This document shows, in pieces, positions 506 through 16,674 of a stretch of DNA of 40,194 nucleotides. The DNA comes from an uncultured Candidatus Saccharibacteria bacterium (GTDB lineage Bacteria > Patescibacteriota > UBA1384 > XYA2-FULL-43-10 > CAINNR01). The notes below the pieces were generated by a model. The model was not told the origin of the DNA. It ran no database searches and was given only the letters and a program-made list of their open reading frames with translations. Numbering within the stretch: the stretch's first letter is position 1; every line of letters starts with the position of its first letter. Where the stretch lies: the NCBI GenBank assembly GCA_964515615.1, contig CAZEVI010000001.1, positions 17,535 through 57,728 of the forward strand, read 5' to 3'. The position numbers and the translations under genes are program-made.

Positions 506-533
506 AAAAAAGCTCCGGCAAAACAGCCGAAGC
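506..533 (-). terminator. Rho-independent terminator downstream of prs
   Basis: The minus strand reads GCTTCGGC-tgtttt-GCCGGAGC followed by TTTTTT: an 8-bp stem with one G-U pair and a 6-nt loop. It starts 9 nt after the prs TAG stop. Confidence 0.6.
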
Positions 534-542
534 ACAGATAAG

Positions 543-1523
543 CTAATCCAAAAACAGAGTTGAAATTGACCCATCGTTTTCGATAGCTTTAATTGCTTCC
601 GCAATAAGCGGAGACATTTTCAGTATCTCGATCTTCAATCGAGATGTCTGTAATTTTTCTGGCGGATGATAAAGTGAATCGGTAATAATGACTCTGTTTA
701 TGCCGCTATCATCAAGTTTTTTTATTGCCTCGCCTGAAAAAAGACCGTGAGAAGCAAAAACCGATACAGATGCCGCACCGTTGTTCAGAAGTGCGTCCGC
801 AACACGACAAGTTGTTCCGCCGGTATCGATCATATCGTCGGGGACAAGAACATGAAAACCTCTGACATCGCCAACAACCTCAATCTGATTTACAACATTT
901 GGTTGAGGTCGACTTTTGCTACAAATCGCAATCGGAGTATCGAGACCAAGCAAATCGCGCCATTTTTTCGCTCGCGCAACACCGCCGACATCCGGAGAAG
1001 CAACCATGTCAACCAACACATTTTGTTTAATGTAAGGAACGGCAAATTGTGAGGCGTACAAATGTTCAACTCGCGTTCCAAAGAGAATAAATGTTGAAAG
1101 AATAGCACTGGAATGAACATCAAAAGTAACGACATGATTTATCGGAACTGGGCTACACAAAGATTGAATATGCAAAGCCGCAGAATCGGCTTCACGCCCA
1201 TTAACCCGATCTTGACGAGAGTAACCCAAATATGGGATTACTAATTTTGGCGTTGCTCCGGCACGAAATACTGCACCAGACAAAAATCTGATTTGATCGG
1301 CATTAAATGCTGGTTGACAAGTTGAACCAATAATGTAAGCTGATTTACCGCGGATTGATTCTGGTATTTTTACATGAATCTCTCCGTCGGCATAATCGCC
1401 ATCGGGTCGGGCATTAATCACTTTCACATTGAGTATTTCACCGATTCTGTACGCAAGATGGCTGCCAGAATCGGCAAAAAGAATCGTGATGTTTCCCGGA
1501 TCAAATTCGCTCAAGACGAACAC
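543..1523 (-). CDS. prs: Ribose-phosphate pyrophosphokinase (PRPP synthase)
   Basis: 326 aa with hallmark Prs motifs: IPYLGYSRQDR, and the PRPP-binding loop VLVPDDMIDTGGT. The track start is GTG 1523. TTG at 1514, 8 nt after GGGAGG, is an equally plausible start. Confidence 0.9.
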   Translation of the reverse strand: MFVLSEFDPGNITILFADSGSHLAYRIGEILNVKVINARPDGDYADGEIHVKIPESIRGKSAYIIGSTCQPAFNADQIRFLSGAVFRAGATPKLVIPYLGYSRQDRVNGREADSAALHIQSLCSPVPINHVVTFDVHSSAILSTFILFGTRVEHLYASQFAVPYIKQNVLVDMVASPDVGGVARAKKWRDLLGLDTPIAICSKSRPQPNVVNQIEVVGDVRGFHVLVPDDMIDTGGTTCRVADALLNNGAASVSVFASHGLFSGEAIKKLDDSGINRVIITDSLYHPPEKLQTSRLKIEILKMSPLIAEAIKAIENDGSISTLFLD

Positions 1524-1650
1524 CTCCCGTCAGTTTTCCACTACGTTTTTAGATTAACCAAAGTCACTAACAATGACAACTTCAAATTTTCCCAACTTAA
1601 AATTAGTAAATACTAAATTGAGAATTCGCTAAAAAACTTCCAACAAACTT

Positions 1651-2697
1651 TTAGAACATCTTTTTGAAAAAAGCCAAAATCCCCTGTTTCCAGGGAACGC
1701 GGTGAGAAACTCCGCTTCGGCCTTCGATATTTTTAATATTTTTTAGATACCATTTGAAATTTCTCAGGAGAGCATCTTTATTTGAATATTTTGGAGCAAA
1801 CCCAAGAATTTTTTTCGCTTTATCGATCGACACGAAAGAATCTTTCGATGCTGTTTCATAAACCCATTTGTAAAGCGGTGAAAGATGCAACATTTCTAAA
1901 AATCGTAGTGACCAGATCATCGGACCCGCCGGAAGCGCCTTAATCTTCTTGCCAAAACCGGCGAAATCCAAAACCGCCTGATAGTCCTCTTTCATTGTTG
2001 TAAATTCCTCAGCGCCAATGTTAAAAACATCATTAACTTTTCGCGACGGCAATGTTAAACAAAGAAAAATTGATTCGCAGAGGTCTTCGACATCTAAAAG
2101 CTGATAACGATTTTTTCCACTGCCGATCATTGGAAAACCGTGGCCATCTTTCGCCCAATCGTAGAAAAGAGCAAAAACACCTAACCTCTCTGGGCCAATG
2201 AATGATTTTGGCCGAATTATTGGAACGACCAAACCTTTTTTTCGAGCTCTTTGACACTCCTTTTCAGCGGCAATTTTGGCTTCACCGTACGGCCCGACAC
2301 CATCTAATTTGTCATCTTCGAAAAGCGGATGATGATCGGGGATGCCGTAAACCGCCGTCGATGATATTTGAACAACGCGCTTAATTTTATTTTTGATCGC
2401 TGCGTTTAAAACATTTCTGGTTCCTAAAATATCAGTTGAATAAATATCTTCTTTTGAATAAAGCGGCAAGGCGGCAGCGGTGTGGACAACCAGATCACAG
2501 CTAGCCATCGCCAATTCAAGATCATTGTTATTTCGAATATCGCCGTAGATCGCTTGAATTTTATATTTTTCCGGATAATCGAACGGTAAAATGTCAAAAG
2601 AAACAATTTCAAAACCGCGATCCGAAAGATAACGAATCAGATTAATGCCCAAAAATCCCGACCCTCCGGTAACAAAAACTTTTTGCTTCTTCTCCAT
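1651..2697 (-). CDS. NAD-dependent epimerase/dehydratase (extended SDR family)
   Basis: 348 aa. N-terminal Rossmann motif VFVTGGSGFLG and catalytic YGEAK (YxxxK). Substrate cannot be assigned from sequence. Confidence 0.85.
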   Translation of the reverse strand: MEKKQKVFVTGGSGFLGINLIRYLSDRGFEIVSFDILPFDYPEKYKIQAIYGDIRNNNDLELAMASCDLVVHTAAALPLYSKEDIYSTDILGTRNVLNAAIKNKIKRVVQISSTAVYGIPDHHPLFEDDKLDGVGPYGEAKIAAEKECQRARKKGLVVPIIRPKSFIGPERLGVFALFYDWAKDGHGFPMIGSGKNRYQLLDVEDLCESIFLCLTLPSRKVNDVFNIGAEEFTTMKEDYQAVLDFAGFGKKIKALPAGPMIWSLRFLEMLHLSPLYKWVYETASKDSFVSIDKAKKILGFAPKYSNKDALLRNFKWYLKNIKNIEGRSGVSHRVPWKQGILAFFKKMF

Positions 2698-2709
2698 TTT
2701 AGAATTCCT

Positions 2710-4320
2710 CTATTTTAATTTTTTAAGTATCAAACACCAAACCTGTATAAAAATGTTGGTTTTTTTGTCGACGTATTCGGTTAATTTTAATGATTTAACC
2801 AGTTCCGACTTGCTTTGAAAATCACCGATTATATTAATTACTCTTCCAAGTTCGGTTGACAGATGGGCATCAGCACCGGCAATCATCGCTTTATTATTTT
2901 TCTCCGCCAGACCACGAGCAAATTTATCTGTTGAAGAAAATAAATTCCGGCCGTTGAAAACTTCAACAATATCAATGTTATGAATAATTTTCTCCGCCGT
3001 TTCACAACTAACCGCCGACCGACGAATTTTATCACCCGGATGAGGCAAACAAACTATCCCTCCCTGTTCTCGAATTTGACGAATTGTTTCTCCGATCATT
3101 TGGCCCCTCTCAATCTTTCGATTTAGAAACAAACCGATAATTTCACCCTCAAGAGTTTTAATCTCCTCACCGATAATAACATTCGGATTGCCATTTGCCA
3201 ATTTTTTTATCTCTAAGGCACCGTAAATTTCGTTGTGATCGGTAACTGCTAACTGCTTAATCTTCTGCTGTCGGCAAAAATCAATAATTGTTTGATAATC
3301 AAGCCAACCATCATTTGACGCTTTGGTGTGCAAGTGGAAAAGAAATTTAATTTTACCTTTTGGCACTTTCTGAGTGTCAGTTTCAGTTTTCCGATCGTAG
3401 CGTTTTTCAGCCAATAGAAGGAAAATAAGCCCGATAATTACTGCAAACCAAAGTGTTACCACCCGAATTAAAATAGTTGCGAACGCTGCGGTTCCGCTCT
3501 CAATCGACAGCAGTTTCAAAAGTCCGGCAATTGTGCCATCAGTAACTCCAAGACCACCCGGAAGCATTGCCACCGCTCCCAAAATCGTCGAAAAGCAATA
3601 AACGAAAAATGCCGCAAAAACGCTAACTTTCAATTTTAAAATAACCAGAATAAAATAAAAATCAACCGCCTCGAAAGACCATGCAATCAATGCAACCAGT
3701 GTTGGAAAAATCAGCCTTTTTGGTTGTAAAAGTTCGTAGGATGTTTCATAGACTTCAATAATTCGCTCGGCATGAGGCGCCAGAAATTTTATTCTGCAAA
3801 GAAGATTAAAAAACTTCAATCCGATCGGTCGAATTAGAATTGCGGCAATGATAATTAAAATTAGCAGAAAAACAGCCCAAATTACTTTGCCACCGTAAGA
3901 AAACCCCCAGGAACCGACTCCGGCCAAAATTAGAAATGCGATTAAGTCCGAAAGCCGATCGGCGAAAACGATCGGCGCTGTTCTGGAAACAGGAGTACCA
4001 AAACCCTTTTTTAGGAAATAGGACTTGACTACCTCACCGAGTTTTCCCGGTGTAATTGTCAACGACAAACCGGAGATAAAAATGATAAACGAATCGACTG
4101 GTGGAATTTTGATTTTCAAAAGTTTCAAATAATACTGCCATTTTATAAAACGGATCAGATAGTTCAGAAAAACAATTAAAAGCAGTAGCGGCAAAAACAC
4201 CCAAGAGAAATGGGAAAATGCTCCGAAAAGCCCACTGGCACTCCCCCAAATGGCAAGAGCTAAATAGACCACCGCCGCCAAAACCAAACCATAAATTATT
4301 TTTTTAGAGATATTTTTCAT
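2710..4320 (-). CDS. Fusion protein: N-terminal lysyl-PG-synthase-TM/UPF0104 flippase-like polytopic domain plus C-terminal PHP-family phosphoesterase domain
   Basis: The N-terminal ~330 aa are strongly hydrophobic and carry LSLTITPGKLGEVVKSY and MLPGGLGVTDG motifs typical of the LPG_synthase_TM family. The C-terminal ~210 aa carry PHP metal-ligand motifs: FHLHTKASNDG, AVTDHNEIYG, LPHPGD, GADAH. I start at ATG 4320 because it overlaps the UbiA gene stop as ATGA (4317-4320). The track ORF extends to 4359. Confidence 0.75.
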   Translation of the reverse strand: MKNISKKIIYGLVLAAVVYLALAIWGSASGLFGAFSHFSWVFLPLLLLIVFLNYLIRFIKWQYYLKLLKIKIPPVDSFIIFISGLSLTITPGKLGEVVKSYFLKKGFGTPVSRTAPIVFADRLSDLIAFLILAGVGSWGFSYGGKVIWAVFLLILIIIAAILIRPIGLKFFNLLCRIKFLAPHAERIIEVYETSYELLQPKRLIFPTLVALIAWSFEAVDFYFILVILKLKVSVFAAFFVYCFSTILGAVAMLPGGLGVTDGTIAGLLKLLSIESGTAAFATILIRVVTLWFAVIIGLIFLLLAEKRYDRKTETDTQKVPKGKIKFLFHLHTKASNDGWLDYQTIIDFCRQQKIKQLAVTDHNEIYGALEIKKLANGNPNVIIGEEIKTLEGEIIGLFLNRKIERGQMIGETIRQIREQGGIVCLPHPGDKIRRSAVSCETAEKIIHNIDIVEVFNGRNLFSSTDKFARGLAEKNNKAMIAGADAHLSTELGRVINIIGDFQSKSELVKSLKLTEYVDKKTNIFIQVWCLILKKLK

Positions 4321-5186
4321 TGGGCAATAAAATAAATAATTAAAATACTTCCTAGCCAAAGAAGCATATCGATAATTAACGGAATGTCGTGAAAAAATAC
4401 TGCCACCGGATCTCCGCCTTCGCGCTTGTTGTAGAGCAAATGAAAATAACGGAAAATACCAAAAACCACCAACGGGGTCGTGTAAATTAGGTTGTCGGTT
4501 CGAAAGTTGGTTTGAGTTTGCGGATCAATCGTATAGAGCGAATAGGAGATGACCGAAACTCCGGCAGTCAGCACCAATATTTGGTTAATAAAACTTTCAG
4601 TGTAGTCGCTAATTGATTTTCGATGCCCAGTTTTATCAACCGTCAAAAGCTCCATCTCGTTTTTCCTTTTGCCAAAAGCCAAAAACAACGCAACAAAAAA
4701 AGTGCAAAGCAAAAGCCAATGTGTCGGGTTCAACGCCAAAGCTTCAGCGCCAACAAACACTCGCAGAACAAAACCGAAAGCAATTATCATTACATCAACT
4801 ATCGGCAAATTTTTCAAACCGAATGAATAAAACAGGTTAACAATAAAATATCCAATGCAGAGATAGAAAACAGTTGCCCCAAGATAGGTTGACACAGCAA
4901 AAGCGGCGGTTAAAACAATGATGAACTCCAAAAAAGCCGGCCAGGTTTTAATCTTCCCCGAAGCGATCGGTCGGAAACATTTTTTGGGGTGTAATCGGTC
5001 GCGCTTTTGATCGAAAATATCATTGATAATGTAAATTGAACTGGCAAAAAGCGAAAAAACACCGAAAGCCAAAAAAACGCGATAAAAACTTTCCAAATCA
5101 AATTTGAAGGCAAAAATCAGCGGAAAAAAGACTAAGATATTTTTCAACCAATGTTTCGGTCGGCAAAGCTGAATATAAGCTAACAT
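4317..5186 (-). CDS. UbiA-family prenyltransferase, decaprenyl-phosphate 5-phosphoribosyltransferase-like (polyprenyl-P + PRPP)
   Basis: 289 aa, polytopic. RPKHWLKN...YIINDIFDQKRDRLHPKKCFRPIASGKI matches the NDxxDxxxDxxHPxKxxRPxASG signature of the Rv3806c/NoeC subfamily rather than quinone or heme prenyltransferases. Confidence 0.75.
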   Translation of the reverse strand: MLAYIQLCRPKHWLKNILVFFPLIFAFKFDLESFYRVFLAFGVFSLFASSIYIINDIFDQKRDRLHPKKCFRPIASGKIKTWPAFLEFIIVLTAAFAVSTYLGATVFYLCIGYFIVNLFYSFGLKNLPIVDVMIIAFGFVLRVFVGAEALALNPTHWLLLCTFFVALFLAFGKRKNEMELLTVDKTGHRKSISDYTESFINQILVLTAGVSVISYSLYTIDPQTQTNFRTDNLIYTTPLVVFGIFRYFHLLYNKREGGDPVAVFFHDIPLIIDMLLWLGSILIIYFIAQ

Positions 5187-7345
5187 TTTTTCCTCTTTAT
5201 AATGCAGTAAATAAGATATATTAATGAAACGAAAATTGCGAGCCAGCTGATCAGACCACCATATTTGAGACTTTTTGGCTCAAATTTCATAATTATGGAG
5301 TGGCTACCTGCAGGAACCTCGATTGCCTTAAAAGTAAAATCAGCTCTTAGCAACTCCGTTTTTTTGCCATCGACATAAGCATTCCACCCAGGATACCAAT
5401 TATCAGAAATGAAAAGCAGGGTCGGCACATTTGTTTCAATTTTTGAGAAGATTATTATATCATTCGATTCATTTTCAATTTTAACGGCGTTTACATTAGA
5501 AGAAGATGTCATTCCATTACCATGAAGTAGCATAACCGGAGATTTTTCTAATATTATATAATCTGAACCGCTGAAATCGGGATTTGTCATCTGTTGATAG
5601 ATTTCTTGGTCATTGTCTAAAACTTTGTACAAATTCAAAGTAAAAGCCCGCGGTAGGGGTTGACCATCAATAGGCGCAGCCGCCAAACGATACAGCGCGT
5701 GATTTTTTTCCGCCATCTCCAAGTATATTTTATACCGGTAAATTGATGCGCCGCTAATATCAATTCCCGAATTGTTGTACGAAATCAAACTGAAATCGCG
5801 AGATATATAATTTGAATTGGCACTAAACTTTTTCCAATCTAGATTACTCATCCTCGGGCTATTTTTATCACCATTAATTTTTATGCATGAGAATAATGGC
5901 CATTGGCATTTATTAATTTCTCCGAATTGATCGAGAGAATATGAAGCAAGATGATAATTAAAATTAACGTTGTAAACCCTAAACAAATCAAAAACCAGAA
6001 TCAAGGAAACAAGAATCACAAATGTTTTTTGCGTTAAATAATGGTTGACAAAACCAAAAAGCATAACGACAAAAATCGAGAATATTAGGATTGTTGCCGA
6101 AAAGTCGTCAAATATTCCGGATTGGCCAGTGGTGGAAACCAAAAATACGATTGCTAAAAAACCTAAAATTAAATAAATCATTTTAATTATTGCATAATCT
6201 CTTTTTTTAAATACAAAATTCTGGATTGAACTGCATACAAGAAATATAGTCGGGAGGTAGAGAAATTGTATAATACGGCTATAAAATCTTAAATTGTTTA
6301 ATATCGGCAGTTGGGTAATCAATACCTGAGAAAAAGAATCAACGAGCGCAAAAAGAATCATTGAAACAGATAATAAAAGATACCAAAACGAATATTTATC
6401 ACGAGTAATTATTGACCTAGTGATAAAAAAAATAATAATTGGGCCAAAATATAAGTAGTCCCACAAATGTTCATATGCGTTGCGGGAAAAAAACAACACT
6501 CCGAATATATCGTCGTATCGCAGAGACCAAAACTTTAAGTAGTCGGAATTTACAAAGTGGCTTCTAACCATTAATTGACTGAATTCAAGCGAAGGTAACA
6601 ATATAATTGCCGAATACAAGCCTGTCCAAAAAACTAATTTTATCCAAGGAAAAAATAAATTTTGAGACGAGTCGCCCTTTTTAACAGAAATTGCGTAGCC
6701 CCAAGGGAGCAAAAAAATTAAGGCGTATATAGCTCCTTGGGGAAAAGTCGAGAATTGTTGAAAAATAACAAAGGCACAAAGGAATAAAAAGATTGATTTT
6801 TTCTGACAAAGATATTTCTCGTAAAATAACATTGAAAGTGGCACCAAAGCCGTAGCCTGTGTAACGGTTACCCATGGGTTAGCAGACCACCCACAAAACA
6901 TAAATAACATCCCGCCGAATATCGACAAAGTAATAGACAATTTTCTCCAGCGCAAATAAAGATAAGTTGAAAATCCAGCCAAAGCCAAATGTACCAGATA
7001 AAATAACTGGTAAATATTAATACTAATTAAATCGTGTCCTCTAATAACTTTTAGCAGATAGTTTGGCAAATAATAATTCCCAACTTGCAGTAAGTTTGGA
7101 CTACCGGAACTGGCAAAGAAGTTCCAATGTGGAATATGCAATGATTTAAAAGAAAAATTCGATAGCAAGAAGTTAATATCCGGCAGATACATATGCACCA
7201 TATCTTCAGAAATATACTTTTTCGCAAAATCACTCACCAAAAATAAACTGTAGTTGCTGACCATAGAAAGCAAAACAAAAAACATAGCTACGGTTACAGT
7301 AACAGCCAATCTCGATTTGAAAATTTTAATAAACTTTATTACCAT
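5180..7345 (-). CDS. YfhO-family GT-C membrane glycosyltransferase
   Basis: 721 aa with a polytopic N-terminal two thirds. The C-terminal DNWYPGWNAYVDGKKTELLRADFTFKAIEVPAGSHSIIMKFEPKSLKYGGLIS plus a terminal TM helix is the characteristic YfhO C-terminus. Confidence 0.7.
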   Translation of the reverse strand: MVIKFIKIFKSRLAVTVTVAMFFVLLSMVSNYSLFLVSDFAKKYISEDMVHMYLPDINFLLSNFSFKSLHIPHWNFFASSGSPNLLQVGNYYLPNYLLKVIRGHDLISINIYQLFYLVHLALAGFSTYLYLRWRKLSITLSIFGGMLFMFCGWSANPWVTVTQATALVPLSMLFYEKYLCQKKSIFLFLCAFVIFQQFSTFPQGAIYALIFLLPWGYAISVKKGDSSQNLFFPWIKLVFWTGLYSAIILLPSLEFSQLMVRSHFVNSDYLKFWSLRYDDIFGVLFFSRNAYEHLWDYLYFGPIIIFFITRSIITRDKYSFWYLLLSVSMILFALVDSFSQVLITQLPILNNLRFYSRIIQFLYLPTIFLVCSSIQNFVFKKRDYAIIKMIYLILGFLAIVFLVSTTGQSGIFDDFSATILIFSIFVVMLFGFVNHYLTQKTFVILVSLILVFDLFRVYNVNFNYHLASYSLDQFGEINKCQWPLFSCIKINGDKNSPRMSNLDWKKFSANSNYISRDFSLISYNNSGIDISGASIYRYKIYLEMAEKNHALYRLAAAPIDGQPLPRAFTLNLYKVLDNDQEIYQQMTNPDFSGSDYIILEKSPVMLLHGNGMTSSSNVNAVKIENESNDIIIFSKIETNVPTLLFISDNWYPGWNAYVDGKKTELLRADFTFKAIEVPAGSHSIIMKFEPKSLKYGGLISWLAIFVSLIYLIYCIIKRKKC

Positions 7346-7359
7346 CGTAATGTTATTTT

Positions 7360-9396
7360 TTATTTATTACCTTTGTACTCGCAACCTAAAAAATTTATCC
7401 TTGCGTTGTTTGCATCAAAGCCTTTTTTGCTTCCGGTAAAAATATTATAATTTTTATGGCTGGTGAAAGGAAAATTGTTTTCCAGATAAATTTTAACTTC
7501 GCTACCCGCCAACTGGCTGAAAGCGACTTTTAATTCCCCAGGATTCAATTGTAAATAATTTGTTAAAATAAATTTTTGCTGTCCACTAACAATTTTTATC
7601 TTCGATTTTGACTCAAGATTGAAATTTAGAAGACAAATTGAATTGTCGCTGATAATCGAATGAAATGCTAGCACCTTTTCGTTCGGTTGATCACTGTAAA
7701 CATTTTTGGCAAGAATTTTCATCGATGTTAAATTTTTGGTCGAAGTAATCTCAAAAATCGGTTTCGCCTTGTTGAATTTATATTCGAGGAGATAATTATC
7801 AACATTCAAATCCGGATAGATTTTTTTATCCAAATTGCTGAAAATCGTTAAAAGGTCGGTGTGAAGTTGTTGCGCTTTGATTAAGTTAACTAAGTAATCT
7901 TGACTGGCAACCGTCCCCGAAGAATCGATAAAAAATTGATTCTCTTCTTCACCAATTTTGTGTTTTTTGACAATTATTTTCTGCTCGTTTGAATGATCAA
8001 AAGCATCGGTAACAAAAACGTCGTCGGGGCTTTTGGGGGAAGATTTTTGATCGATTATTTTTGAAAAATAATCGGACGCCAAAGAAAGATCTCCTTCAAA
8101 TTGCGGCAGATAATAGCAAAATTGAACAACCATGGCCGAGATGACAATGATTAAATAGCAGCGATAAGCAGCTATCTTTTGGTAGTTCAAAATCGCCAAA
8201 GCGGCTAAAATCGAAATTGGAAGATAGAGCGGAACAAAAAAGCGGCCGTCAACAAAGCTAAGTACAATCATAAAAATATAAGGAACCAACCACCAAAGAT
8301 GCCATTTATTTTTCAAAAATAGTATTCCCAAAAGTGCCAAAAACAAAATTAAGAAAAAATAAATCTCAATCATCAATCGCCAAAAGTACTGGCCGAAAAA
8401 TCCGAGATTGCCAACATTGTAAACTTCGTTGTAGACATATGAATTTGGCAAGAATAAATTTCTGATTTTTGAAAAAGCAAGTTTGGCAAATTTTAGCGGA
8501 TTTTTGGCGATCCAATGATCGGCCAATTTTTTGTAATTTTTATCGGAGAGATATTCGTTATCGGTTTTAACCACGTTGCCGGACACTAGATAACCGGTCG
8601 GCGGAAATGCGGCGTTGTTGCCATTTAGGACATACGGGTTGTTTCCCAAAAGCATATTCACGCCGCCATTGGTTGAAACTAAAACCGGACCACCCGTAGC
8701 GATCGATGAACGAATCGACCAAAAGAGAACCGGCAAAATCGCAAAAAATATTAAGATAAATTTCAGATATTCAAACTTGTGAAATTTGAAAAAATGATAA
8801 ATAAATACTAGAGGAATTATTAAAAGATAAATTAAATAGGTTGGACGAGTTAGTATTAACCAACCAAACAAAAGTCCAGAGATAATTACTAACAGCGGAT
8901 TTTTTCTCTCCCGACCCAAAAAATAAAAATAAAAGGCGCCGATGATAAAAAATTGGGAGATTGATTCGGTCCAAAGACTGTTGTTCATAAAGTAAATTAC
9001 CGGGTTCAAAAGATATATAACGATTACCAACTGTGCAACGCGATCGGAAAAAAATCTTTTGACAATGCTGAAAAACATTATAATCGAAATCAAAAACAAT
9101 CCGATTTGAGAGAGAACAGCCAGTTGCCACTTTCCCGAGATTGAGTAAATTATCGCCAAAAAAATCGGCAGACCCGGCGGACGATAAGCTGTTAGTATCC
9201 AATTTCCTTCTGAATCTTTATTTTCAGCGTAAACGTGATATTTGGCCAAATTGCTTCCAAGAATTTGATAATTTATCGGATCATTCGGGTGAGCGTAGGG
9301 ATTATTTTTCAAATTCAAAAACAACACCACAGATAAAACGGCGGCAACAACCACCACACAAACCAGAAACCAATTAATTTTGATTGTTTTTTTCAT
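7360..9396 (-). CDS. ArnT/PMT-like (GT39/GT83-type) GT-C glycosyltransferase with ~250-aa C-terminal extracytoplasmic domain; paralog A
   Basis: 678 aa. N-terminal TM, then YRPPGLPIFLAIIY, LLFGWLILTRPTYLIYLL and STNGGVNMLLGNNPY. Clearly paralogous to the next gene along its full length. Confidence 0.7.
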   Translation of the reverse strand: MKKTIKINWFLVCVVVVAAVLSVVLFLNLKNNPYAHPNDPINYQILGSNLAKYHVYAENKDSEGNWILTAYRPPGLPIFLAIIYSISGKWQLAVLSQIGLFLISIIMFFSIVKRFFSDRVAQLVIVIYLLNPVIYFMNNSLWTESISQFFIIGAFYFYFLGRERKNPLLVIISGLLFGWLILTRPTYLIYLLIIPLVFIYHFFKFHKFEYLKFILIFFAILPVLFWSIRSSIATGGPVLVSTNGGVNMLLGNNPYVLNGNNAAFPPTGYLVSGNVVKTDNEYLSDKNYKKLADHWIAKNPLKFAKLAFSKIRNLFLPNSYVYNEVYNVGNLGFFGQYFWRLMIEIYFFLILFLALLGILFLKNKWHLWWLVPYIFMIVLSFVDGRFFVPLYLPISILAALAILNYQKIAAYRCYLIIVISAMVVQFCYYLPQFEGDLSLASDYFSKIIDQKSSPKSPDDVFVTDAFDHSNEQKIIVKKHKIGEEENQFFIDSSGTVASQDYLVNLIKAQQLHTDLLTIFSNLDKKIYPDLNVDNYLLEYKFNKAKPIFEITSTKNLTSMKILAKNVYSDQPNEKVLAFHSIISDNSICLLNFNLESKSKIKIVSGQQKFILTNYLQLNPGELKVAFSQLAGSEVKIYLENNFPFTSHKNYNIFTGSKKGFDANNARINFLGCEYKGNK

Positions 9397-9417
9397 CTTT
9401 GATTCGCAAAATAATTA

Positions 9418-11526
9418 TTATTCTATACTATCAAACGATAGTATCCTATTAATCTGCGCTCCGTTAATTTGAAATGCTCTTTTTTGTCCGGTGAACAAAT
9501 TGTAGTTATGCAAATTTTCAAACTCAAGATTATTTTTTAATTTGATCGCAACAGTTGTTTTGTCATTTAATTTGACAATTATTTTGAAAATCGCTCTGCC
9601 GGGAAATGTAAAATTCGTCAAGTGCAAAGTTTTATTCCCTGACCTAATGAACATTTCCGATGTTTGATCGAGCTCGGCAAATAACAGATATTGTTTATCA
9701 TCTTCGGTATTAAATCTTTTGGCTGTTTGAATTTGATCCGGCCAATCGGAAGTTGCAGGTTGACCGTCAACAATTTGAAAATTGGTTGGCAACGATTCAC
9801 TGGGAACTATTTTAAAAATCGGCCGTGAAAGTTCACTGCAATACAATAAATTATTTTGGTTTGAAATATCAGGATATTTAGTCTTGTCGATGTCAGAAAA
9901 AACCGACACTAAATCAGTATAAATCTGTCCGTGTTTGATTAAATCCAACAGTTGTTTTTGTGAAATTTCTTCTCCTTTTGAATCAAAGAAAAGCTGCTCA
10001 CCGCGACCAAATTGACCGTCTTTACAAATTACCCTTTGAAGATTGGTTTTGCAACTCGCGTCGGTGATAAAAAAATTATTCTCCACAAGGCTGACAATTT
10101 GACTATCCCGATAACTTTTGTAATATTCTCTGGCCAATACAAATTCTTTGATAATTGAAGGATAGAAAAATAGAAATTGCCAGCCAAAAATTATCAACAT
10201 CATTATCAGATATAATTTGTTAGCCGATAATTTAGAAATGTTAATAATTGCTAGCGCCGCCAGTATTGACATCGGCAAATACAACGGAATTGCAAATCGG
10301 CTGTCAGCAAAAGTTAAAATAATTATTAAAATGTATGGCAAAAGCCAGAGAAATATCCACTTGTTTTTTACAAACCGTATACCTAGTAGTGCGAAAAGGA
10401 GCAACAGAGAATAATTTATCATTTTAATCAAACAAAGAATCTCAGCCGACAACTTGCTTGCGCTGTTTTCAATTCCAAATAAATTATTGTCCGCCACAAA
10501 AAGATATTGTATTTTACTTAACGACATTTTTATAAAAAGCCGGGGGTTGCGGACAATCCAGATTGCCGCCTCCTTAGTGTCATTGCGGTCAATGTCACTC
10601 TCGCTGGAACTATTACCGGGCCCAATTCCTCTTGCCTGCAAAAAAGCAGGCGACGGCCAATTTGCCGCCCTGCCATTAATATTGTACGGATTGTTACCCA
10701 GCATATAATTGATTCCTCCGTTGGTTGAAATTAAAACCGGACTGCCACTGACTATCGTTGACCGAACAGACCAAGCCAAAATTGGAACACAAGCCCAAAC
10801 TAAAAAAATTAAAAATGATTTGTTCAGTTCCCGATTTTTCAGTCGAGCTATTATTAAATACAGAAAAAATATAAGTAAATAAATTAGAAAAGTTGGCCGA
10901 ACTAAAATTAGCCAGCCAAATAATAAGCCGGCGATGATTAAAGATAAGTATCGATGAATGTTAGCCAAGTGGTCAAAAAAGAGATAAAAATAGGCCGAAA
11001 TTATTAGTAACGAGAGCGTAACAGATTCGGTCCAAAAACTATTGTTTACTAATAGAATTGTAAAATTTGTGCCGTAAATAATAGCTGCTACGAAAGCTGT
11101 TTTCCGATCAAAATATTTTTTTATTAATTTAAATAGTAAAAAAATACTTAAAAGAAAAACCGCCATTTGCAACAAAATTACCAATTTCCAAGCATTAATT
11201 TTAACTAAATAAATTAAAGCGATAAACAGCGGATACCCCGGTGGACGAAAAGAGTTAACAATACTGCCATACGGCGAAGTATGAAAATAATGCAAATTTT
11301 TCATATTTAAAAAAAGATTTTCCGAATATCTATGAGCGGCAACCAAATTCCTTCCCAACAAATCATAAATTTTAGGGTCGTTGATCAGAGTTTGCGGATT
11401 ATTGGGGAAAAAAATAAATAACAGAATCATAATAATTAGTGGCAAAAATAAAATCACCGCAATTGCTACAAATTCAAGTTTTTTGGACTTGTTTTTTCTT
11501 TCGATTGTTGGCTTATCTTCGGCCAT
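9418..11526 (-). CDS. ArnT/PMT-like GT-C glycosyltransferase; paralog B
   Basis: 702 aa. FRPPGYPLFIALIY, LLFGWLILVRPTFLIYLL and STNGGINYMLGNNPY. The C-terminal domain shares FFDSKGEE..LLDLIK..YTDL..VFSDIDK..YPD and NYNLFTG motifs with paralog A. Confidence 0.7.
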   Translation of the reverse strand: MAEDKPTIERKNKSKKLEFVAIAVILFLPLIIMILLFIFFPNNPQTLINDPKIYDLLGRNLVAAHRYSENLFLNMKNLHYFHTSPYGSIVNSFRPPGYPLFIALIYLVKINAWKLVILLQMAVFLLSIFLLFKLIKKYFDRKTAFVAAIIYGTNFTILLVNNSFWTESVTLSLLIISAYFYLFFDHLANIHRYLSLIIAGLLFGWLILVRPTFLIYLLIFFLYLIIARLKNRELNKSFLIFLVWACVPILAWSVRSTIVSGSPVLISTNGGINYMLGNNPYNINGRAANWPSPAFLQARGIGPGNSSSESDIDRNDTKEAAIWIVRNPRLFIKMSLSKIQYLFVADNNLFGIENSASKLSAEILCLIKMINYSLLLLFALLGIRFVKNKWIFLWLLPYILIIILTFADSRFAIPLYLPMSILAALAIINISKLSANKLYLIMMLIIFGWQFLFFYPSIIKEFVLAREYYKSYRDSQIVSLVENNFFITDASCKTNLQRVICKDGQFGRGEQLFFDSKGEEISQKQLLDLIKHGQIYTDLVSVFSDIDKTKYPDISNQNNLLYCSELSRPIFKIVPSESLPTNFQIVDGQPATSDWPDQIQTAKRFNTEDDKQYLLFAELDQTSEMFIRSGNKTLHLTNFTFPGRAIFKIIVKLNDKTTVAIKLKNNLEFENLHNYNLFTGQKRAFQINGAQINRILSFDSIE

Positions 11527-12157
11527 TTTTTTTCGGAATTAAAATGAAAAATATCAGTATAAAAAAAGTTATGATTGCTGGAAAAAAAGTCAGTAAAACG
11601 TGATTGTAGTGATGTCTGATGTCGGAGACGGTTTCTTTAATCAAATCGATAATTCTTGTTTGAAAAACGACTCTCGGACCGTTATCAATTTGTGGGTCGG
11701 GATTGGAGTCGGCAATTCCAATAGAAAGTTGATTGTTGGTTTCGAATCGACTGTTGTTAATAAATTTAACATCGACAGCCGCTCCGGATTGCGGTTCGGC
11801 AGAAAATTTTATCCAGTTGTATTTTTTATTTTTTAGATTTGACAGCGGAATCTCCTGACTCTCGTTTTGAAGCTGATTGTTTCGGTCTCTAAAACTAACG
11901 ACAACCGTTAACTTTTTGTCCTTCTCTTTTTCAATATAAAAATTTTTGTTGATAATAATTAAAAGGCCGGAGACTTTTCGGTCGGTAACGAAATTCAGTT
12001 CGGTTTGGCCGGCAAAGCCAATCTCTCGACCGCCAATTGCCGTTGTTTGAATATTGCCGACATAATTTATCGGCAAAAATGATAAAAATATCAAAAAAAC
12101 GACAATGATAATCGCCAATATTATAGAAACAATTTTACTCCGATTTTTTTTCATCAA
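11513..12157 (-). CDS. Hypothetical bitopic membrane protein (N- and C-terminal TM helices, ~150-aa central domain)
   Basis: 214-aa ORF in the operon orientation. It overlaps both neighbours (14 nt and 23 nt). No recognisable motif. Confidence 0.55.
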   Translation of the reverse strand: MMKKNRSKIVSIILAIIIVVFLIFLSFLPINYVGNIQTTAIGGREIGFAGQTELNFVTDRKVSGLLIIINKNFYIEKEKDKKLTVVVSFRDRNNQLQNESQEIPLSNLKNKKYNWIKFSAEPQSGAAVDVKFINNSRFETNNQLSIGIADSNPDPQIDNGPRVVFQTRIIDLIKETVSDIRHHYNHVLLTFFPAIITFFILIFFILIPKKNGRR

Positions 12158-13424
12158 AATTAAAATAAATTTTATAAGCTATAAAGATGAGTGAAAGATC
12201 AAATAAGCTTCGAACTAAGATTCTAGCCGATGGTAAACCGAATGACAAAATCGGCGGTTGCTGATAAATTCCCCCAACCGATAAAAAGAATGATTGGTTT
12301 GCCGGAATAAATAATTGCCAGCTGACCGCTGTCCCCCAAAAACTTTCAATAAACAACAGATAGAAAATCACAAGCAAGATAAAATACCAGAAAAATTTTG
12401 GCCTCTCGGGCAGAATAAAAATCAACATTGGTGTCATCCAAACTAAATAATGAGGATTAAAATATCCGAAAAGAAAATAGGCCACCGAAGCCAAAAAAAG
12501 AAATTTTAGAAGCTGATTAAAATTGGCCTCTCTTTTTAATCGATAATAAATATAAAGTAAAACTGGATAAGCCAAAACAAAAATTGAAGCTAAACTAAAA
12601 TCGTTGCCAATTTTCATACTGAGAAAAAATTGGCCAAAATCAGCCGAACTAGCCGAAGAAACAATTGACGACGCTCCACCCAAAGAGATAAATCGGCTAA
12701 TAATTGCCAATGGCAAAACAGCGAACAAGGAATTAATAATATAATCTTTGTAGTTTTTAGAGAAATAGATAATTAGTAGTGGCAGGAATAAAATAAAACT
12801 TACTCGAGTCGCTACTGCCAAACCGGCAATTAAAATCGTCAAAACCGGTTGTTTTCTGCTAGCCAACAAAAACGATAACGCCAAAAGAGAAATCGGAATA
12901 ATTTCATAGCGCCCCCAGAGATAAACCGAATACAAAATTAACGGATTAAACGCCCAAAAAGCAATCGCGTAATTTCTGGTTTTTCTGTTCTGTGAAAAAT
13001 ATTTGAAGATAACGACCAAAAACAATAGATCAAAAATTAAATAGGGAGCTTTAAAAAGAAAAAGATAATTTAGGGCATTTGCAGAGAGCAAAAAATTTTG
13101 CAGTTCGGCAAATGAAACCGAACTTTGCTGAATATTTGAAAGTTGTAAAGCATCTGGCAATTTCGAAATTAGCGGTTTTATCAGCCAAAGATATGGAATT
13201 AGAATCACTTCGGAAAATTTCCCGACATTGAAAAAATGGTTAAAAATAAACAGTGATTGCCGTCTGATTGATGACAACAGGTCGTTATGAGTCGAAAGCG
13301 GCATTAAAAGAAAACGAATAAACAATCCCCCAAGAATAAAAATAGGGGCAATTTTGCGCCCCTCGATAAAACGCACTTGATTGTTTTTTTCTTCTGCCAT
13401 TTTTTCATTATTAACGATTTCCAA
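12135..13424 (-). CDS. Polytopic membrane protein, probable GT-C-fold glycosyltransferase (DUF2029/GT87/PIG-V-like pattern)
   Basis: 429 aa with ~10 or more hydrophobic segments. The region LFKAPYLIFDLL...AFWAFNPLILYSVYLWGRYEIIPISLLALSFLLASRK...GLAVATRVSF resembles the loop/TM pattern of GT87-like enzymes. Start is ambiguous (TTG 13424 or ATG 13400). Confidence 0.5.
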   Translation of the reverse strand: MEIVNNEKMAEEKNNQVRFIEGRKIAPIFILGGLFIRFLLMPLSTHNDLLSSIRRQSLFIFNHFFNVGKFSEVILIPYLWLIKPLISKLPDALQLSNIQQSSVSFAELQNFLLSANALNYLFLFKAPYLIFDLLFLVVIFKYFSQNRKTRNYAIAFWAFNPLILYSVYLWGRYEIIPISLLALSFLLASRKQPVLTILIAGLAVATRVSFILFLPLLIIYFSKNYKDYIINSLFAVLPLAIISRFISLGGASSIVSSASSADFGQFFLSMKIGNDFSLASIFVLAYPVLLYIYYRLKREANFNQLLKFLFLASVAYFLFGYFNPHYLVWMTPMLIFILPERPKFFWYFILLVIFYLLFIESFWGTAVSWQLFIPANQSFFLSVGGIYQQPPILSFGLPSARILVRSLFDLSLIFIAYKIYFNFDEKKSE

Positions 13425-13438
13425 GAAAAAATCAATAG

Positions 13439-14692
13439 CTAGCTCAACTCTTTTTTGACTTCAAGATAATTTAAAACAAAATAAGGCAAGTATGAGATTG
13501 ATGTTGCGATTGATGCACCATTGACTCCGTACTTTGGGATAAGCAGATAATTGAGCAAAATATTTGCAACAATAGTGAACGAAATGTTAATCGCTCGCTT
13601 TTTCGCCAAACCGCGAAAATCAAGGAGGGTGCTAAAAAAAACTGAATAAGAAAACATAATCAAATACGGCAAAAGAAGAATTAGCGGCATTGCCGAAGCG
13701 ACATAATTTGAGCCGTATATTTTTGGCATAAACCAATTGGCGAGCGTGATGATAATGACGGCAATTGAGAAAAATATTGCTGTGTTGGCTTTTATCAGTT
13801 TGGCAAAAATCTTTCTTAATTTTTCCCTGTTTTGATCGTCTAATTTGGCAAAAATCGGCATTGTTCCCATTGAAATGGCGATCGCCAAGTGGGGCAATTT
13901 TACGATTATCTGTTTGGCGGCGGCGTAAATCCCGACATCATAACTGGTTTTCAAGTAGCCAATCATTACCGTATCGATCTCGGTGGCAATCCAAAAACCA
14001 ATGCTGACAAGAAACAGTGGAAAGCTATAATGAATAATTTGCTTTAAATAACGATTTTGACTTTTGCTCTCCCCGCGGTAAAAATTAAAATAAACTATCA
14101 ACCCTCCGACCAAGGCGGCTAAAAATAGACTAATCACATAAGAATCAATAATAGCCGAAAGTTGAATTGAGAATTGGAAAAAAAACAAAACTAGAAAAAA
14201 TTTTAAACCGAATTCAATCGAATTGATAATAAAATTATATTTATTGAGATGCAAACCGACGAAAGCATCTTTCAAAAATTCTACTCCGCCGGAGAAAAAA
14301 ACCAGCGGTGATGAAAGCAAAAAAAGCTTAGTCAATTCCGGTCGGCTGAGTAAATTTGCCAACTCTTTGCTAAAAATTGCCAAAATAGCGGCGACACAGA
14401 AACTAAAAATAAATCTGGCTTGAAAAGCGGCCTTCAAAACCGCTTTTAACTCTCCTGATCCGCTATGTTTGGCGATGTAGGTTTTGCTCGAAGCGTTGAT
14501 GCCGAAATAGGACACCAACAATATCATTGAAAGAATTGAATAAAAAAACGACCACTGACCAAAAACCTCGACTCCTAGAACACGAGCCAGATAAATGTTT
14601 AGTGCATAAAATAAGCCAAAAGTAACGAACTTTGACAAAAAACTCCAAAAAGTTTCCTTGGCAAATTTATTTTTAAAAAATTTATTTAGCAT
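13439..14692 (-). CDS. Wzx-like oligosaccharide flippase (MOP superfamily polysaccharide biosynthesis protein)
   Basis: 417 aa, ~12 TM segments. N-terminus KETFWSFLSKFVTFGLFYALNIYLARVLGVEVFGQWSFFYS is typical of the family. Confidence 0.8.
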   Translation of the reverse strand: MLNKFFKNKFAKETFWSFLSKFVTFGLFYALNIYLARVLGVEVFGQWSFFYSILSMILLVSYFGINASSKTYIAKHSGSGELKAVLKAAFQARFIFSFCVAAILAIFSKELANLLSRPELTKLFLLSSPLVFFSGGVEFLKDAFVGLHLNKYNFIINSIEFGLKFFLVLFFFQFSIQLSAIIDSYVISLFLAALVGGLIVYFNFYRGESKSQNRYLKQIIHYSFPLFLVSIGFWIATEIDTVMIGYLKTSYDVGIYAAAKQIIVKLPHLAIAISMGTMPIFAKLDDQNREKLRKIFAKLIKANTAIFFSIAVIIITLANWFMPKIYGSNYVASAMPLILLLPYLIMFSYSVFFSTLLDFRGLAKKRAINISFTIVANILLNYLLIPKYGVNGASIATSISYLPYFVLNYLEVKKELS

Positions 14693-15509
14693 TTTTGTAT
14701 ATTTCTTTTGTATCTTTTCTTAACGGCGAGTTAGGTTTTTTTTCGTAATTGCCGATCGCTAAAAAGCTAATCGGCACCAATGATTTATCAATTTTGAAAT
14801 GTTGACGGAATTGATTTATGCTATTTTTAAAATTGGGAGATTCTTTCAGCCCAAGCCAACATGCACCGTAACCCCTTGAGTGAAGCGACAAAAGCAAATT
14901 TTGAATCGCAGCACCGACATCCAAATAAGAATAAATTGTTTCATTTTGATTGTATTTTGAACGATCAATCATTGCTACAATTAAAACTTTGGCTTTGACA
15001 AAGAAATCTTGATTAGTTAAATTTTGAATGTATTTAAAATCGGTTTTTTTGCTAACTATCAGGAAAAACCAACCTTGCCGATTACAAGAATTTGGCGCCC
15101 ATTTTGCGCTGTCGATCGCTTGAATAATATCTTCGATTTTAACCGGCTTATTGTTCCATTTTCGAATGCTCCGCCGAGATTTAATCGCTTGTTCAATTAT
15201 TTTTATCTCTTGGCTTGAATATTTAACCGAAGCAGTCTCCTTTGGCTTCAGATGAAAATTAGCGTCAAAAAGAACATCTCGCGCCCAACGAATTGAATCA
15301 TCAGCAGTAACACCACGCCGAACCAATTGACTAAATAGAAAGTTTACTTCGAAATTCAGAATCGAATTATTCTGTCGATTTTGATTCGCTTTCTCCAATA
15401 AATGGGCTCTTTTCAAAAATTGAGTTTTGATTTTATCATCGCTCCAAAACAGAGCCCGAAAATAATAAAATAGACGAAAAGCAAATGTTTTTTTGACTCG
15501 ATATTTCAT
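14682..15509 (-). CDS. Nitroreductase-family flavoprotein with ~100-aa N-terminal extension
   Basis: 275 aa. SRRSIRKWNNKPV...AIDSAKWAPNSCNRQGWFFLIV is the nitroreductase FMN-binding signature. Confidence 0.75.
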   Translation of the reverse strand: MKYRVKKTFAFRLFYYFRALFWSDDKIKTQFLKRAHLLEKANQNRQNNSILNFEVNFLFSQLVRRGVTADDSIRWARDVLFDANFHLKPKETASVKYSSQEIKIIEQAIKSRRSIRKWNNKPVKIEDIIQAIDSAKWAPNSCNRQGWFFLIVSKKTDFKYIQNLTNQDFFVKAKVLIVAMIDRSKYNQNETIYSYLDVGAAIQNLLLSLHSRGYGACWLGLKESPNFKNSINQFRQHFKIDKSLVPISFLAIGNYEKKPNSPLRKDTKEIYKNAK

Positions 15510-16663: not shown

Positions 16664-16674
16664 TACCAATTTTT

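Follow-up and report, generated by a model that had tools for sequence, protein, structure and literature searches.

The stretch analyzed here (the window; 40,194 nt of contig CAZEVI010000001.1, assembly GCA_964515615.1) is from an uncultured Candidatus Saccharibacteria bacterium. At positions 543-5186, its minus strand codes for a phosphoribosyl pyrophosphate (PRPP) synthase (prs), an extended short-chain dehydrogenase/reductase (SDR), a protein that fuses an MprF-type flippase-like membrane domain to a PHP phosphoesterase domain, and an enzyme of the UbiA superfamily. We read this block, with a probability of about 0.6, as the part of an extracytoplasmic pentofuranosylation system that supplies the donor. 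An initial annotation had described the four genes as a pathway from PRPP to a lipid-linked pentofuranose, with a replaced phosphatase. All four open reading frames (ORFs) were found on the minus strand, and profile hidden Markov model searches (Pfam, NCBIfam) returned the families that had been named, with LPG_synthase_TM for the membrane half of the fusion. Genomic context gives good support to its central idea and to a replaced phosphatase; the flippase had been missed, and prs does not belong to the conserved part of the module. Coordinates and domain evidence are collected in Table 1.

Among the four proteins, the UbiA enzyme has the firmest assignment. As judged from its sequence family, it very probably functions as a polyprenyl-phosphate 5-phosphoribosyltransferase (PPPRS). 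It matches NF008977, the equivalog model for decaprenyl-phosphate phosphoribosyltransferase (DPPRS), with 276 bits (cut-off 234). The best match in the PDB is Rv3806c from M. tuberculosis (8j8j, E=6e-37, 131 bits), and the next UbiA-type structure follows at E=4e-6 (30 bits). The signature that had been reported for this protein, N55-D56-x-x-D59-x-x-x-D63-x-x-H66-P67-x-K-x-x-R-P-x-A75-S76-G77, is exact (4956-5024), and N55, D56, D59 and D63 align with NDVRDVEAD of Rv3806c. The first Asp-rich motif, N-D-x-x-D-x-x-x-D, is essential in Rv3806c and in ORF15 of C. youngae (PMC11127046). Automated JGI labels call many homologs "4-hydroxybenzoate polyprenyltransferase", which would fit an aromatic, quinone or heme prenyltransferase in a cluster unrelated to pentose donors. 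This is refuted at the level of the sequence family, and we consider it extremely improbable: the NCBIfam models of the UbiA, CyoE and MenA types score at most 34 bits, with cut-offs of at least 200, none of the quinone, heme and chlorophyll models exceeds 34 bits, Rv3806c is by far the best structural match, and the DPPRS signature is complete. The candidate assignment as a quinone or heme prenyltransferase was thus rejected, in agreement with the initial annotation.

The membrane half of the fusion protein matches PF03706 with 140.6 bits (cut-off 33.4) and TIGR00374 with 91.9 bits (cut-off 43.2); its C-terminal half matches PF02811 with 31.8 (cut-off 26.4) and PF13263 with 29.4 (cut-off 21.3). 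An AlphaFold2 model, built with 32 homologs (mean pLDDT 83.6), has a helical membrane domain (residues 4-313) and an alpha/beta domain (residues 323-535), joined by a short linker of low confidence. A sequence search of the PDB with the fusion protein gave no match, so that only the fold search was informative. In Foldseek searches of the PDB, the N-terminal domain retrieved MprF structures (7duw, 9j8q, 7f47 and 9goe). The PHP domain retrieved the PHP domain of RNase AM (7ug9, 8.6e-7), TM0559 (2anu), RNase AM from V. cholerae (9etk) and also Cv1693 with bound AMP and phosphate (2yb1). These neighbors include enzymes that act on ribose-phosphate esters (RNase AM, Cv1693). The metal-ligand residues of the PHP domain are H329, H331, D361-H362, E386, H427 and D484-x-H486, and all of these except H329 are invariant among the fused bacterial, separate bacterial and haloarchaeal PHP proteins of the cassettes described below. 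According to hydropathy and the positive-inside rule, the N-terminus of the fusion, its K/R-rich loops and its K/R-rich linker are cytoplasmic; the PHP domain is thus predicted to be located where PRPP-derived intermediates arise. We consider it probable that the PHP domain is the 5-phosphatase acting on polyprenyl-phosphate-5-phosphoribose. With somewhat less confidence, we favor the MprF-type domain as the flippase for polyprenyl-phosphate-pentofuranose. Sequence and structural model indicate that the membrane half is a flippase-type domain and more than an anchor, so that the module would include an export step.

Full-length fusions are rare. About eight homologs were found in a search of 5.8 billion proteins, one of them from a metagenome-assembled genome (MAG) of Candidatus Berkelbacteria, and one representative is present among 1.84 billion representatives of 50%-identity clusters. 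The fusion had been reported to be translationally coupled to the UbiA gene. The coupling is real, but with a different start codon: the listed TTG at 4359 was rejected in favor of the ATG at 4320, which is the most likely start; homologs begin with MKN(I/L)S. This ATG overlaps the UbiA stop codon as ATGA (junction ...GCCCAATGAAAAAT).

Related loci support, at the level of gene content, a functional cassette that consists of UbiA, a flippase-like protein, an SDR and a phosphatase, with a gene order that is shuffled across candidate-phyla bacteria, other bacteria and haloarchaeal plasmids (Table 1). The cassette occurs on plasmids of Haloterrigena, Natronococcus and Halostagnicola; beyond the Haloterrigena operon listed in Table 1, three more haloarchaeal plasmids have mutually adjacent matches to UbiA, PHP and SDR. 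Candidate-phyla genomes also have SDR genes that come next after a gene for a HAD-UbiA fusion or after separate UbiA and HAD genes. Different phosphatases can demonstrably take the same slot: it contains PHP (as a fusion or as a separate protein), HAD or EEP, while UbiA, the flippase-like gene and the SDR persist; the Streptomyces plasmid suggests EEP as the third phosphatase family in this slot. This is the pattern expected for non-orthologous displacement, and the replacement proposed for the phosphatase is thus well supported by context. Pfam scans covered every window ORF of at least 120 aa and detected none of the domains PAP2, HAD, FAD_binding_4 (DprE1) and adh_short (DprE2) in them, which bears out the statement that no PAP2 or DprE1-like gene is present in the window. 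Of the four-gene co-occurrence considered in the initial annotation, UbiA, PHP and SDR recur in unrelated lineages, including Archaea. Adjacency of prs was found in none of the scanned cassette flanks (L001, L003/L004, L005, L010, L011 and L178), and prs was rejected as a conserved member of the module.

Several of these loci deserve a comment of their own. The plasmid pLLF27D, from a dairy Lactococcus, carries a mix-and-match three-component variant without an epimerase inside a polysaccharide cluster. The genome paper on Halanaeroarchaeum lists the same cassette genes without comment, and the cassette (HLASA_2008-2013) lies in a region that its authors call a phage-like element. A human gut sequence deposited as UNVERIFIED Bacteriophage sp. 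(L181, MT837543.1) encodes a DPPRS (39% identity) plus a weaker SDR match at 844-3708. The cassette may move on mobile elements.

The extended SDR has the expected sequence motifs: TGGxGFLG, D35, S112-S113-T114 and Y137xxxK141 are invariant in six cassette orthologs. No NCBIfam model scored above its cut-off; the best ones (HpnA-, OleD- and dTDP-glucose-dehydratase-like) are all far below. Of the two SDRs from Rhizobium CCGE531, a locus listed in PMC11127046, one has 33% identity to the protein along the full length, and the other has 24%. It belongs to a subfamily with 66-73% identity across many phyla, which has at least 593 relatives in the collection of species-representative genomes. In addition to candidate-phyla groups, these phyla include Chloroflexota, Rubrobacteraceae, Ignavibacteria, Spirochaetes, Fibrobacter and others. 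In whole clades, the gene occurs isolated beside housekeeping genes, and the conservation is unusually strong for a sugar-modifying SDR. Gene linkage was scanned in the best 80 loci from an alignment search of the genome collection with the SDR. A DPPRS gene was found within 10 kb in 19 of these. UbiA is the only neighbor family that is common across phyla (17 loci by clustering); other neighbor families are limited to few related lineages and are mostly housekeeping. Each of the six best plasmid matches to the SDR has a DPPRS match no more than 1 kb away. We lean towards a role of the SDR on the lipid-linked pentose. Some MAG contigs labeled as Klebsiella sp. or Muribaculaceae (L020, L023, L032, L017 and L027) encode SDRs that cluster with those from Chloroflexota and candidate phyla; it is likely that these bins are taxonomically mislabeled.

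These assignments can be joined into a pathway in which we infer all steps after the UbiA assignment. PRPP would be provided by the prs product, which is assigned by family and linked to the module by adjacency only. The UbiA enzyme, true to its family, would act on the cytoplasmic side of the membrane and transfer 5-phosphoribose from PRPP onto polyprenyl phosphate. The PHP domain, attached to the flippase at its predicted cytoplasmic end, would then strip the 5-phosphate, as context and fold suggest. The extended SDR, with bound NAD, would epimerize polyprenyl-phosphate-ribofuranose, either to xylofuranose (the C3 epimer) or to arabinofuranose (the C2 epimer). The MprF-type domain would flip the lipid-linked pentose with its neutral headgroup to the outer leaflet, and the upstream GT-C enzymes would pass the pentose to a surface glycan or protein. 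The fusion of phosphatase and flippase would channel only the dephosphorylated donor into export. The sugar may be ribo-, xylo- or arabinofuranose. Ribofuranose or arabinofuranose had been proposed; by analogy, xylofuranose is at least as likely as arabinofuranose. Arabinofuranose is not the favored product because the only characterized example with a single SDR yields xylofuranose.

Several observations weigh against this pathway. In the Haloterrigena cassette PHP, the HxH motif begins with Gln and not with His. Most stand-alone PHP homologs (33-45% identity) lack cassette neighbors, which are found in only about 5 of 80 metagenome loci; a UbiA neighbor is present in one of the 32 PHP-homolog metagenome loci of at least 6 kb, and three of three further sampled stand-alone loci lack cassette neighbors. 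A general cassette linkage of stand-alone PHP homologs, which had been expected, was not borne out. One haloarchaeal PHP homolog is encoded in an unrelated polysaccharide cluster. The PHP domain might hydrolyze another phosphoester (in polyprenyl-diphosphate recycling, in a nucleotide by-product or in a phosphorylated glycan), and the phosphatase for decaprenyl-phosphate 5-phosphoribose (PAP2 or HAD) might be encoded elsewhere. Most 33-45% relatives are in unrelated contexts, one of them in a cluster with GT2, deacetylase and ATP-grasp genes, and the mycobacterial phosphatase Rv3807c belongs to a different family. We nevertheless regard another substrate as rather improbable. The PHP domain takes the slot that is held by HAD or EEP in otherwise equivalent cassettes, and no other phosphatase domain was detected among the scanned window ORFs. 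In at least 12 independent cassette loci, from two domains of life, PHP is either part of a fusion or encoded next to the other genes, and its fold neighbors act on ribose phosphate esters. Flippase-like homologs with 40-45% identity (Ignavibacteria, Bacteroidota) adjoin maf in a housekeeping context without UbiA; the abundant stand-alone homologs had been expected in cassettes, which is not so, and only the closest subfamily is informative. It is conceivable that LPG_synthase_TM is only an anchor or scaffold for PHP, or flips another lipid, and that a Wzx-like, GtrA, SMR or MATE protein exports the pentose. The flippases that are characterized or proposed in known systems are MATE, SMR and GtrA proteins, and two Wzx-like proteins are encoded in the window. 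Flipping by an LPG_synthase_TM domain has been shown only for lipids of the aminoacyl-phosphatidylglycerol type (NCBIfam names; PMC5898192). However, a stand-alone flippase-like gene is kept beside UbiA when PHP is separate or is replaced by HAD or EEP, and the protein is therefore not just an anchor for PHP. The window cassette has no GtrA, SMR or MATE gene and, by analogy, the AglD and MprF fusions favor a flippase role. An anchor or a different cargo thus appears unlikely, and we retain the flippase-phosphatase assignment for the fusion.

The SDR also has a mixed record. Among the best 80 loci, 30 are too short to assess UbiA linkage, and 31 of the 50 assessable ones (66-73% identity subfamily) lack UbiA despite a flank of at least 5 kb on each side. 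These unlinked loci make up whole clades of Chloroflexota, Rubrobacteraceae and Ignavibacteria. In a neighbor-joining tree, the unlinked clades nest among UbiA-linked lineages, and the more distant SDRs from Haloterrigena, Streptomyces and Rhizobium are UbiA-linked. This favors gene dispersal in larger genomes over a different function, and a broader role of the SDR is possible. The module may make and export only polyprenyl-phosphate-ribofuranose, with an SDR that serves another reaction (nucleotide-sugar modification or lipid redox) and merely travels along. The 31 unlinked loci would agree with this, as would the HpnA-, OleD- and dTDP-glucose-dehydratase-like best matches below cut-off and a window rich in other sugar-modifying genes. 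Such a bystander role is improbable in our view. The SDR gene adjoins those for UbiA, flippase and phosphatase, often with overlaps or gaps of 4-20 nt, despite the shuffling of gene order; this adjacency covers candidate-phyla bacteria, other bacteria, Actinomycetota and haloarchaea. The DPPRS linkage of all six best plasmid matches points in the same direction, and a single SDR in such a position was shown genetically to switch ribofuranose to xylofuranose (Kelly et al. 2024, PMC11127046). The initial annotation had offered unrelated conserved neighborhoods of PHP and SDR as a possible counter-argument; both are cassette-linked in many loci, and distant homologs of both are often found outside cassettes. 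Two further points concern the remaining proteins of the proposed pathway. The prs gene lacks adjacency in the scanned cassette flanks, as described above. The window GT-C genes are of the PMT_2 and YfhO types and not of the GT136 type of the characterized system, and for two of their products a PDB search by sequence revealed no relative. In a more far-reaching version, the genes would form a widespread mobile cassette of candidate-phyla bacteria, Chloroflexota, Actinomycetota and haloarchaea, with an ultra-conserved SDR that 2'-epimerizes polyprenyl-phosphate-ribose (arabinofuranose independent of DprE1/DprE2) and with the MprF-type domain as a general pentose flippase. We consider this version, taken as a whole, doubtful.

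The minus strand is the coding strand for every gene in 543-11526. The UbiA gene (4317-5186), the flippase-like domain (3382-4320) and the GT-C genes (5180-11526) form one overlapping, co-directional block. The gene at 5180-7345 shares 7 nt (ATGTTAG) with the start of the UbiA gene, 12 nt separate the stop codon of the fusion from the start codon of the SDR, and a spacer of 127 nt lies between SDR and prs. The terminator-like hairpin at 512-533 is probably the end of the transcription unit. No comparable site was found in the SDR-prs spacer, and prs is probably co-transcribed with the cassette. The prs gene codes for a class I enzyme that matches Pribosyltran_N, Pribosyl_synth and Pribosyltran (N-terminal and PRTase domains); its true start is likely the TTG at 1514, behind a GGGAGG motif. 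A second terminator-like hairpin (GTTCCCTGGAAACAGGGGAT plus a T-rich tail) is found at 1679-1698 on the minus strand, within the 3' coding end of the SDR gene and over the codons for a conserved VPWKQGIL. It could be a coincidence or a partial attenuator before prs.

Table 1. Features of the window and cassette loci in other genomes. AF2, AlphaFold2.
Feature or locus	Position	Strand	Evidence or gene content
Intrinsic-terminator-like hairpin and T-run	512-533	-	8-bp stem with 6 GC pairs, then TTTTTTCTTG; directly 3' of the prs stop
Ribose-phosphate diphosphokinase (PRPP synthase, prs)	543-1523	-	TIGR01251, 225.7 bits (cut-off 113)
Extended SDR (NAD-dependent epimerase/dehydratase fold)	1651-2697	-	PF01370 at 2.1e-38
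Fusion protein as listed ORF	2710-4359	-	LPG_synthase_TM at residues 22-310, then PHP and PHP_C at residues 341-525
PHP/PHP_C metal-dependent phosphoesterase domain, C-terminal half of the fusion	2710-3354	-	PF02811, PF13263, Foldseek
MprF-type (LPG_synthase_TM/TIGR00374) flippase-like membrane domain, N-terminal half of the fusion	3382-4320	-	PF03706, TIGR00374, AF2, Foldseek
Predicted UbiA-superfamily polyprenyl-phosphate 5-phosphoribosyltransferase (PPPRS/DPPRS)	4317-5186	-	NF008977; Rv3806c; motif
GT-C-type glycosyltransferase candidate, YfhO-like C-terminus	5180-7345	-	PF09586, 32.5 bits (cut-off 28.5)
GT-C glycosyltransferase (PMT_2/ArnT-PMT-like), paralog of 9418-11526	7360-9396	-	PF13231, 32.4 bits
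GT-C glycosyltransferase (PMT_2), second paralog	9418-11526	-	PF13231, 43.7 bits
L001, L003, L004			GT-C (PMT_2), UbiA, flippase-PHP fusion, SDR
L010			two GT-C_AftD genes, then UbiA, flippase, separate PHP, SDR
L011			UbiA, flippase, SDR, 550-aa membrane protein, PHP
L178			UbiA, flippase, SDR, PHP
L122			UbiA, PHP, SDR, flippase
L005, L006			UbiA, flippase, SDR, small HAD; GT-C_AftD nearby
Haloterrigena sp. KLK7 plasmid			LPG_synthase_TM, PHP and DPPRS in one operon, divergent from SDR, DolP-Man mannosyltransferase, GT39
Streptomyces sp. SAT1 plasmid (L094, NZ_CP016082.1)	7956-14943		SDR, UbiA, GT2, EEP-family phosphatase, GT2, LPG-synthase-domain protein
Lactococcus plasmid pLLF27D (L180, NZ_PP589792.1)	5359-8691		hypothetical 533-aa protein, DPPRS, HAD-IB phosphatase, GtrA-family protein

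GT-C genes had been claimed immediately upstream of the UbiA gene, and three are present there. The one at 9418-11526 codes for a protein with 45-49% identity to those encoded upstream of UbiA in L001 and L003. The product of the gene at 7360-9396 is 36-39% identical to neighbors in the same two loci, where its orthologs are encoded directly upstream of UbiA, and 38% identical to its paralog in the window (BLASTP). The candidate encoded at 5180-7345 matches the YfhO model over no more than its final ~65 residues and has no counterpart in the related cassette loci. Its gene seems to have been inserted, specifically in this lineage, between UbiA and the conserved PMT_2 GT-C genes. A 900-aa ORF farther away (21248-23950, minus strand) has no Pfam match. 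Over the last 180 residues, its product has 33% identity to a cassette neighbor in L010 that is annotated as GT-C_AftD, and L003 and L001 have orthologs close to their cassettes. The protein may be another transferase of the GT-C type.

The remaining window is a large polysaccharide locus with genes for GT1, GT2, GT4 and Wzx-like proteins, pyruvyl transferase, methyltransferase and radical-SAM enzymes, and with rmlABC-like genes. A gene of the nitroreductase family overlaps that for a polysaccharide pyruvyl transferase, and a gene for a B12-binding radical-SAM enzyme is part of the same locus (14682-16669 and 29712-31274, minus strand). Taken together, these genes suggest unusual glycan decorations. 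A single 574-aa ORF at 34659-36383 (minus strand) combines an N-terminal GT2 domain with a C-terminal extended-SDR domain (epimerase/GDP-mannose-dehydratase-like).

The initial annotation had used the mycobacterial route as the established comparator. This route is not the only comparator available: PPPRS systems with a HAD phosphatase and a single SDR epimerase are known (PMC11127046), so that the design that had been called non-canonical has a precedent. Experiments by Kelly et al. (2024, PMC11127046) identified ORF15 of C. youngae as a PPPRS that also contains a HAD phosphatase domain. According to the same study, ORF12 is a GT-C enzyme that uses farnesyl-phosphate-ribofuranose or farnesyl-phosphate-xylofuranose, ORF13 is a single cytoplasmic SDR that turns the ribofuranose side chain into xylofuranose, and the MATE protein ORF14 is proposed as the flippase. 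Candidate arabinofuranose systems carry DprE1/DprE2 homologs, the transporters are MATE or SMR proteins only, and PHP is absent from the supplement (PMC11127046). In our reading, the window block shares with this type of system a UbiA-type PPPRS that uses PRPP, a dedicated 5-phosphatase and the optional single cytoplasmic extended-SDR epimerase, and also a flippase and GT-C transferases that are clustered inside a polysaccharide locus. PPPRS, transporter and GT-C enzymes, by which members of this type are recognized, are encoded together in the window block. The window SDR is of the extended type with TGxxGxxG and YxxxK and may correspond to the auxiliary SDR of such systems; the comparison was made with the two Rhizobium CCGE531 SDRs. 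The differences concern most of the parts. The Kelly system has a HAD "PRP" domain with its PPPRS, whereas PHP is fused to the flippase in the window; the scanned window ORFs lack a HAD domain, which occupies the slot in sister cassettes. The flippase is of the MATE or SMR type there and of the MprF type here, this being the only transporter-like domain of the window cassette. In place of GT136, the window has the three PMT_2/YfhO-like GT-C genes. In addition, prs is attached and the host belongs to a candidate phylum.

The pathway for decaprenyl-phosphate arabinose from mycobacteria shares with the window the family of its first enzyme (6e-37 to Rv3806c). The logic is also the same: PRPP is converted to lipid-phosphate-5-phosphoribose, then to lipid-phosphate-ribose and its epimer, followed by extracytoplasmic GT-C transfer. 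The GT-C enzymes are Emb/Aft in mycobacteria, and cassette relatives of the window have GT-C_AftD-annotated neighbors (L005, L010). In the window, PHP is found in place of PAP2 (Rv3807c), one extended SDR in place of the pair of DprE1 (FAD) and DprE2 (classical SDR), and an MprF-type domain in place of the small Rv3789; the product need not be arabinose. MprF (flippase plus lysyl-phosphatidylglycerol synthase) and archaeal AglD (GT2 plus an MprF-like domain) have a membrane domain of the same family and fold as the fusion. They follow the same design, in which the last cytoplasmic lipid-modifying enzyme is fused to a flippase-like domain. MprF-like domains that are encoded beside GT-C genes have been predicted to be flippases of lipid-linked sugars (Makarova et al. 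2015, PMC5898192). The fusion differs in its partner (PHP), in its presumed cargo (polyprenyl-phosphate pentose versus aminoacyl-phosphatidylglycerol) and in being essentially confined to one 50%-identity cluster. In the CsbB/GtcA/YfhO and GtrA/GtrB/GtrV systems, too, a lipid-phosphate sugar of cytoplasmic origin is flipped and then serves an outside GT-C enzyme as donor, and one window GT-C protein has a YfhO-like C-terminus. Their donor synthase is, however, a GT2 enzyme that uses a nucleotide sugar, in contrast to the PRPP-dependent UbiA enzyme of the window, where dephosphorylation and epimerization are additional steps.

The pathway logic was already established by Kelly et al. 2024 (PMC11127046), and what is added here is thus an increment and not a new concept. 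To judge by the literature that was searched, the PHP phosphatase, the use of an MprF-type flippase in such a pathway, the fusion of the two, and the candidate-phyla and haloarchaeal hosts are new. If our reading is correct, PHP would be the third phosphatase family for the pentofuranose-donor step, after PAP2 and HAD, and the MprF-type domain would be a candidate flippase for a lipid-linked pentose. We know of no direct experimental proof for the flipping of a lipid-linked pentose in any system. The fusion of phosphatase and flippase would be unusually clear genetic evidence for which proteins cooperate. Glycosylation with lipid-linked pentofuranose would extend to candidate-phyla bacteria and haloarchaea, the surface glycans of which are, to our knowledge, largely unknown. 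Among the haloarchaea, Haloterrigena, Natronococcus and Halostagnicola carry the cassette and are cultivable test hosts. The SDR subfamily, with its 66-73% identity across phyla, could help to predict xylo- or arabinofuranose in uncharacterized glycans.

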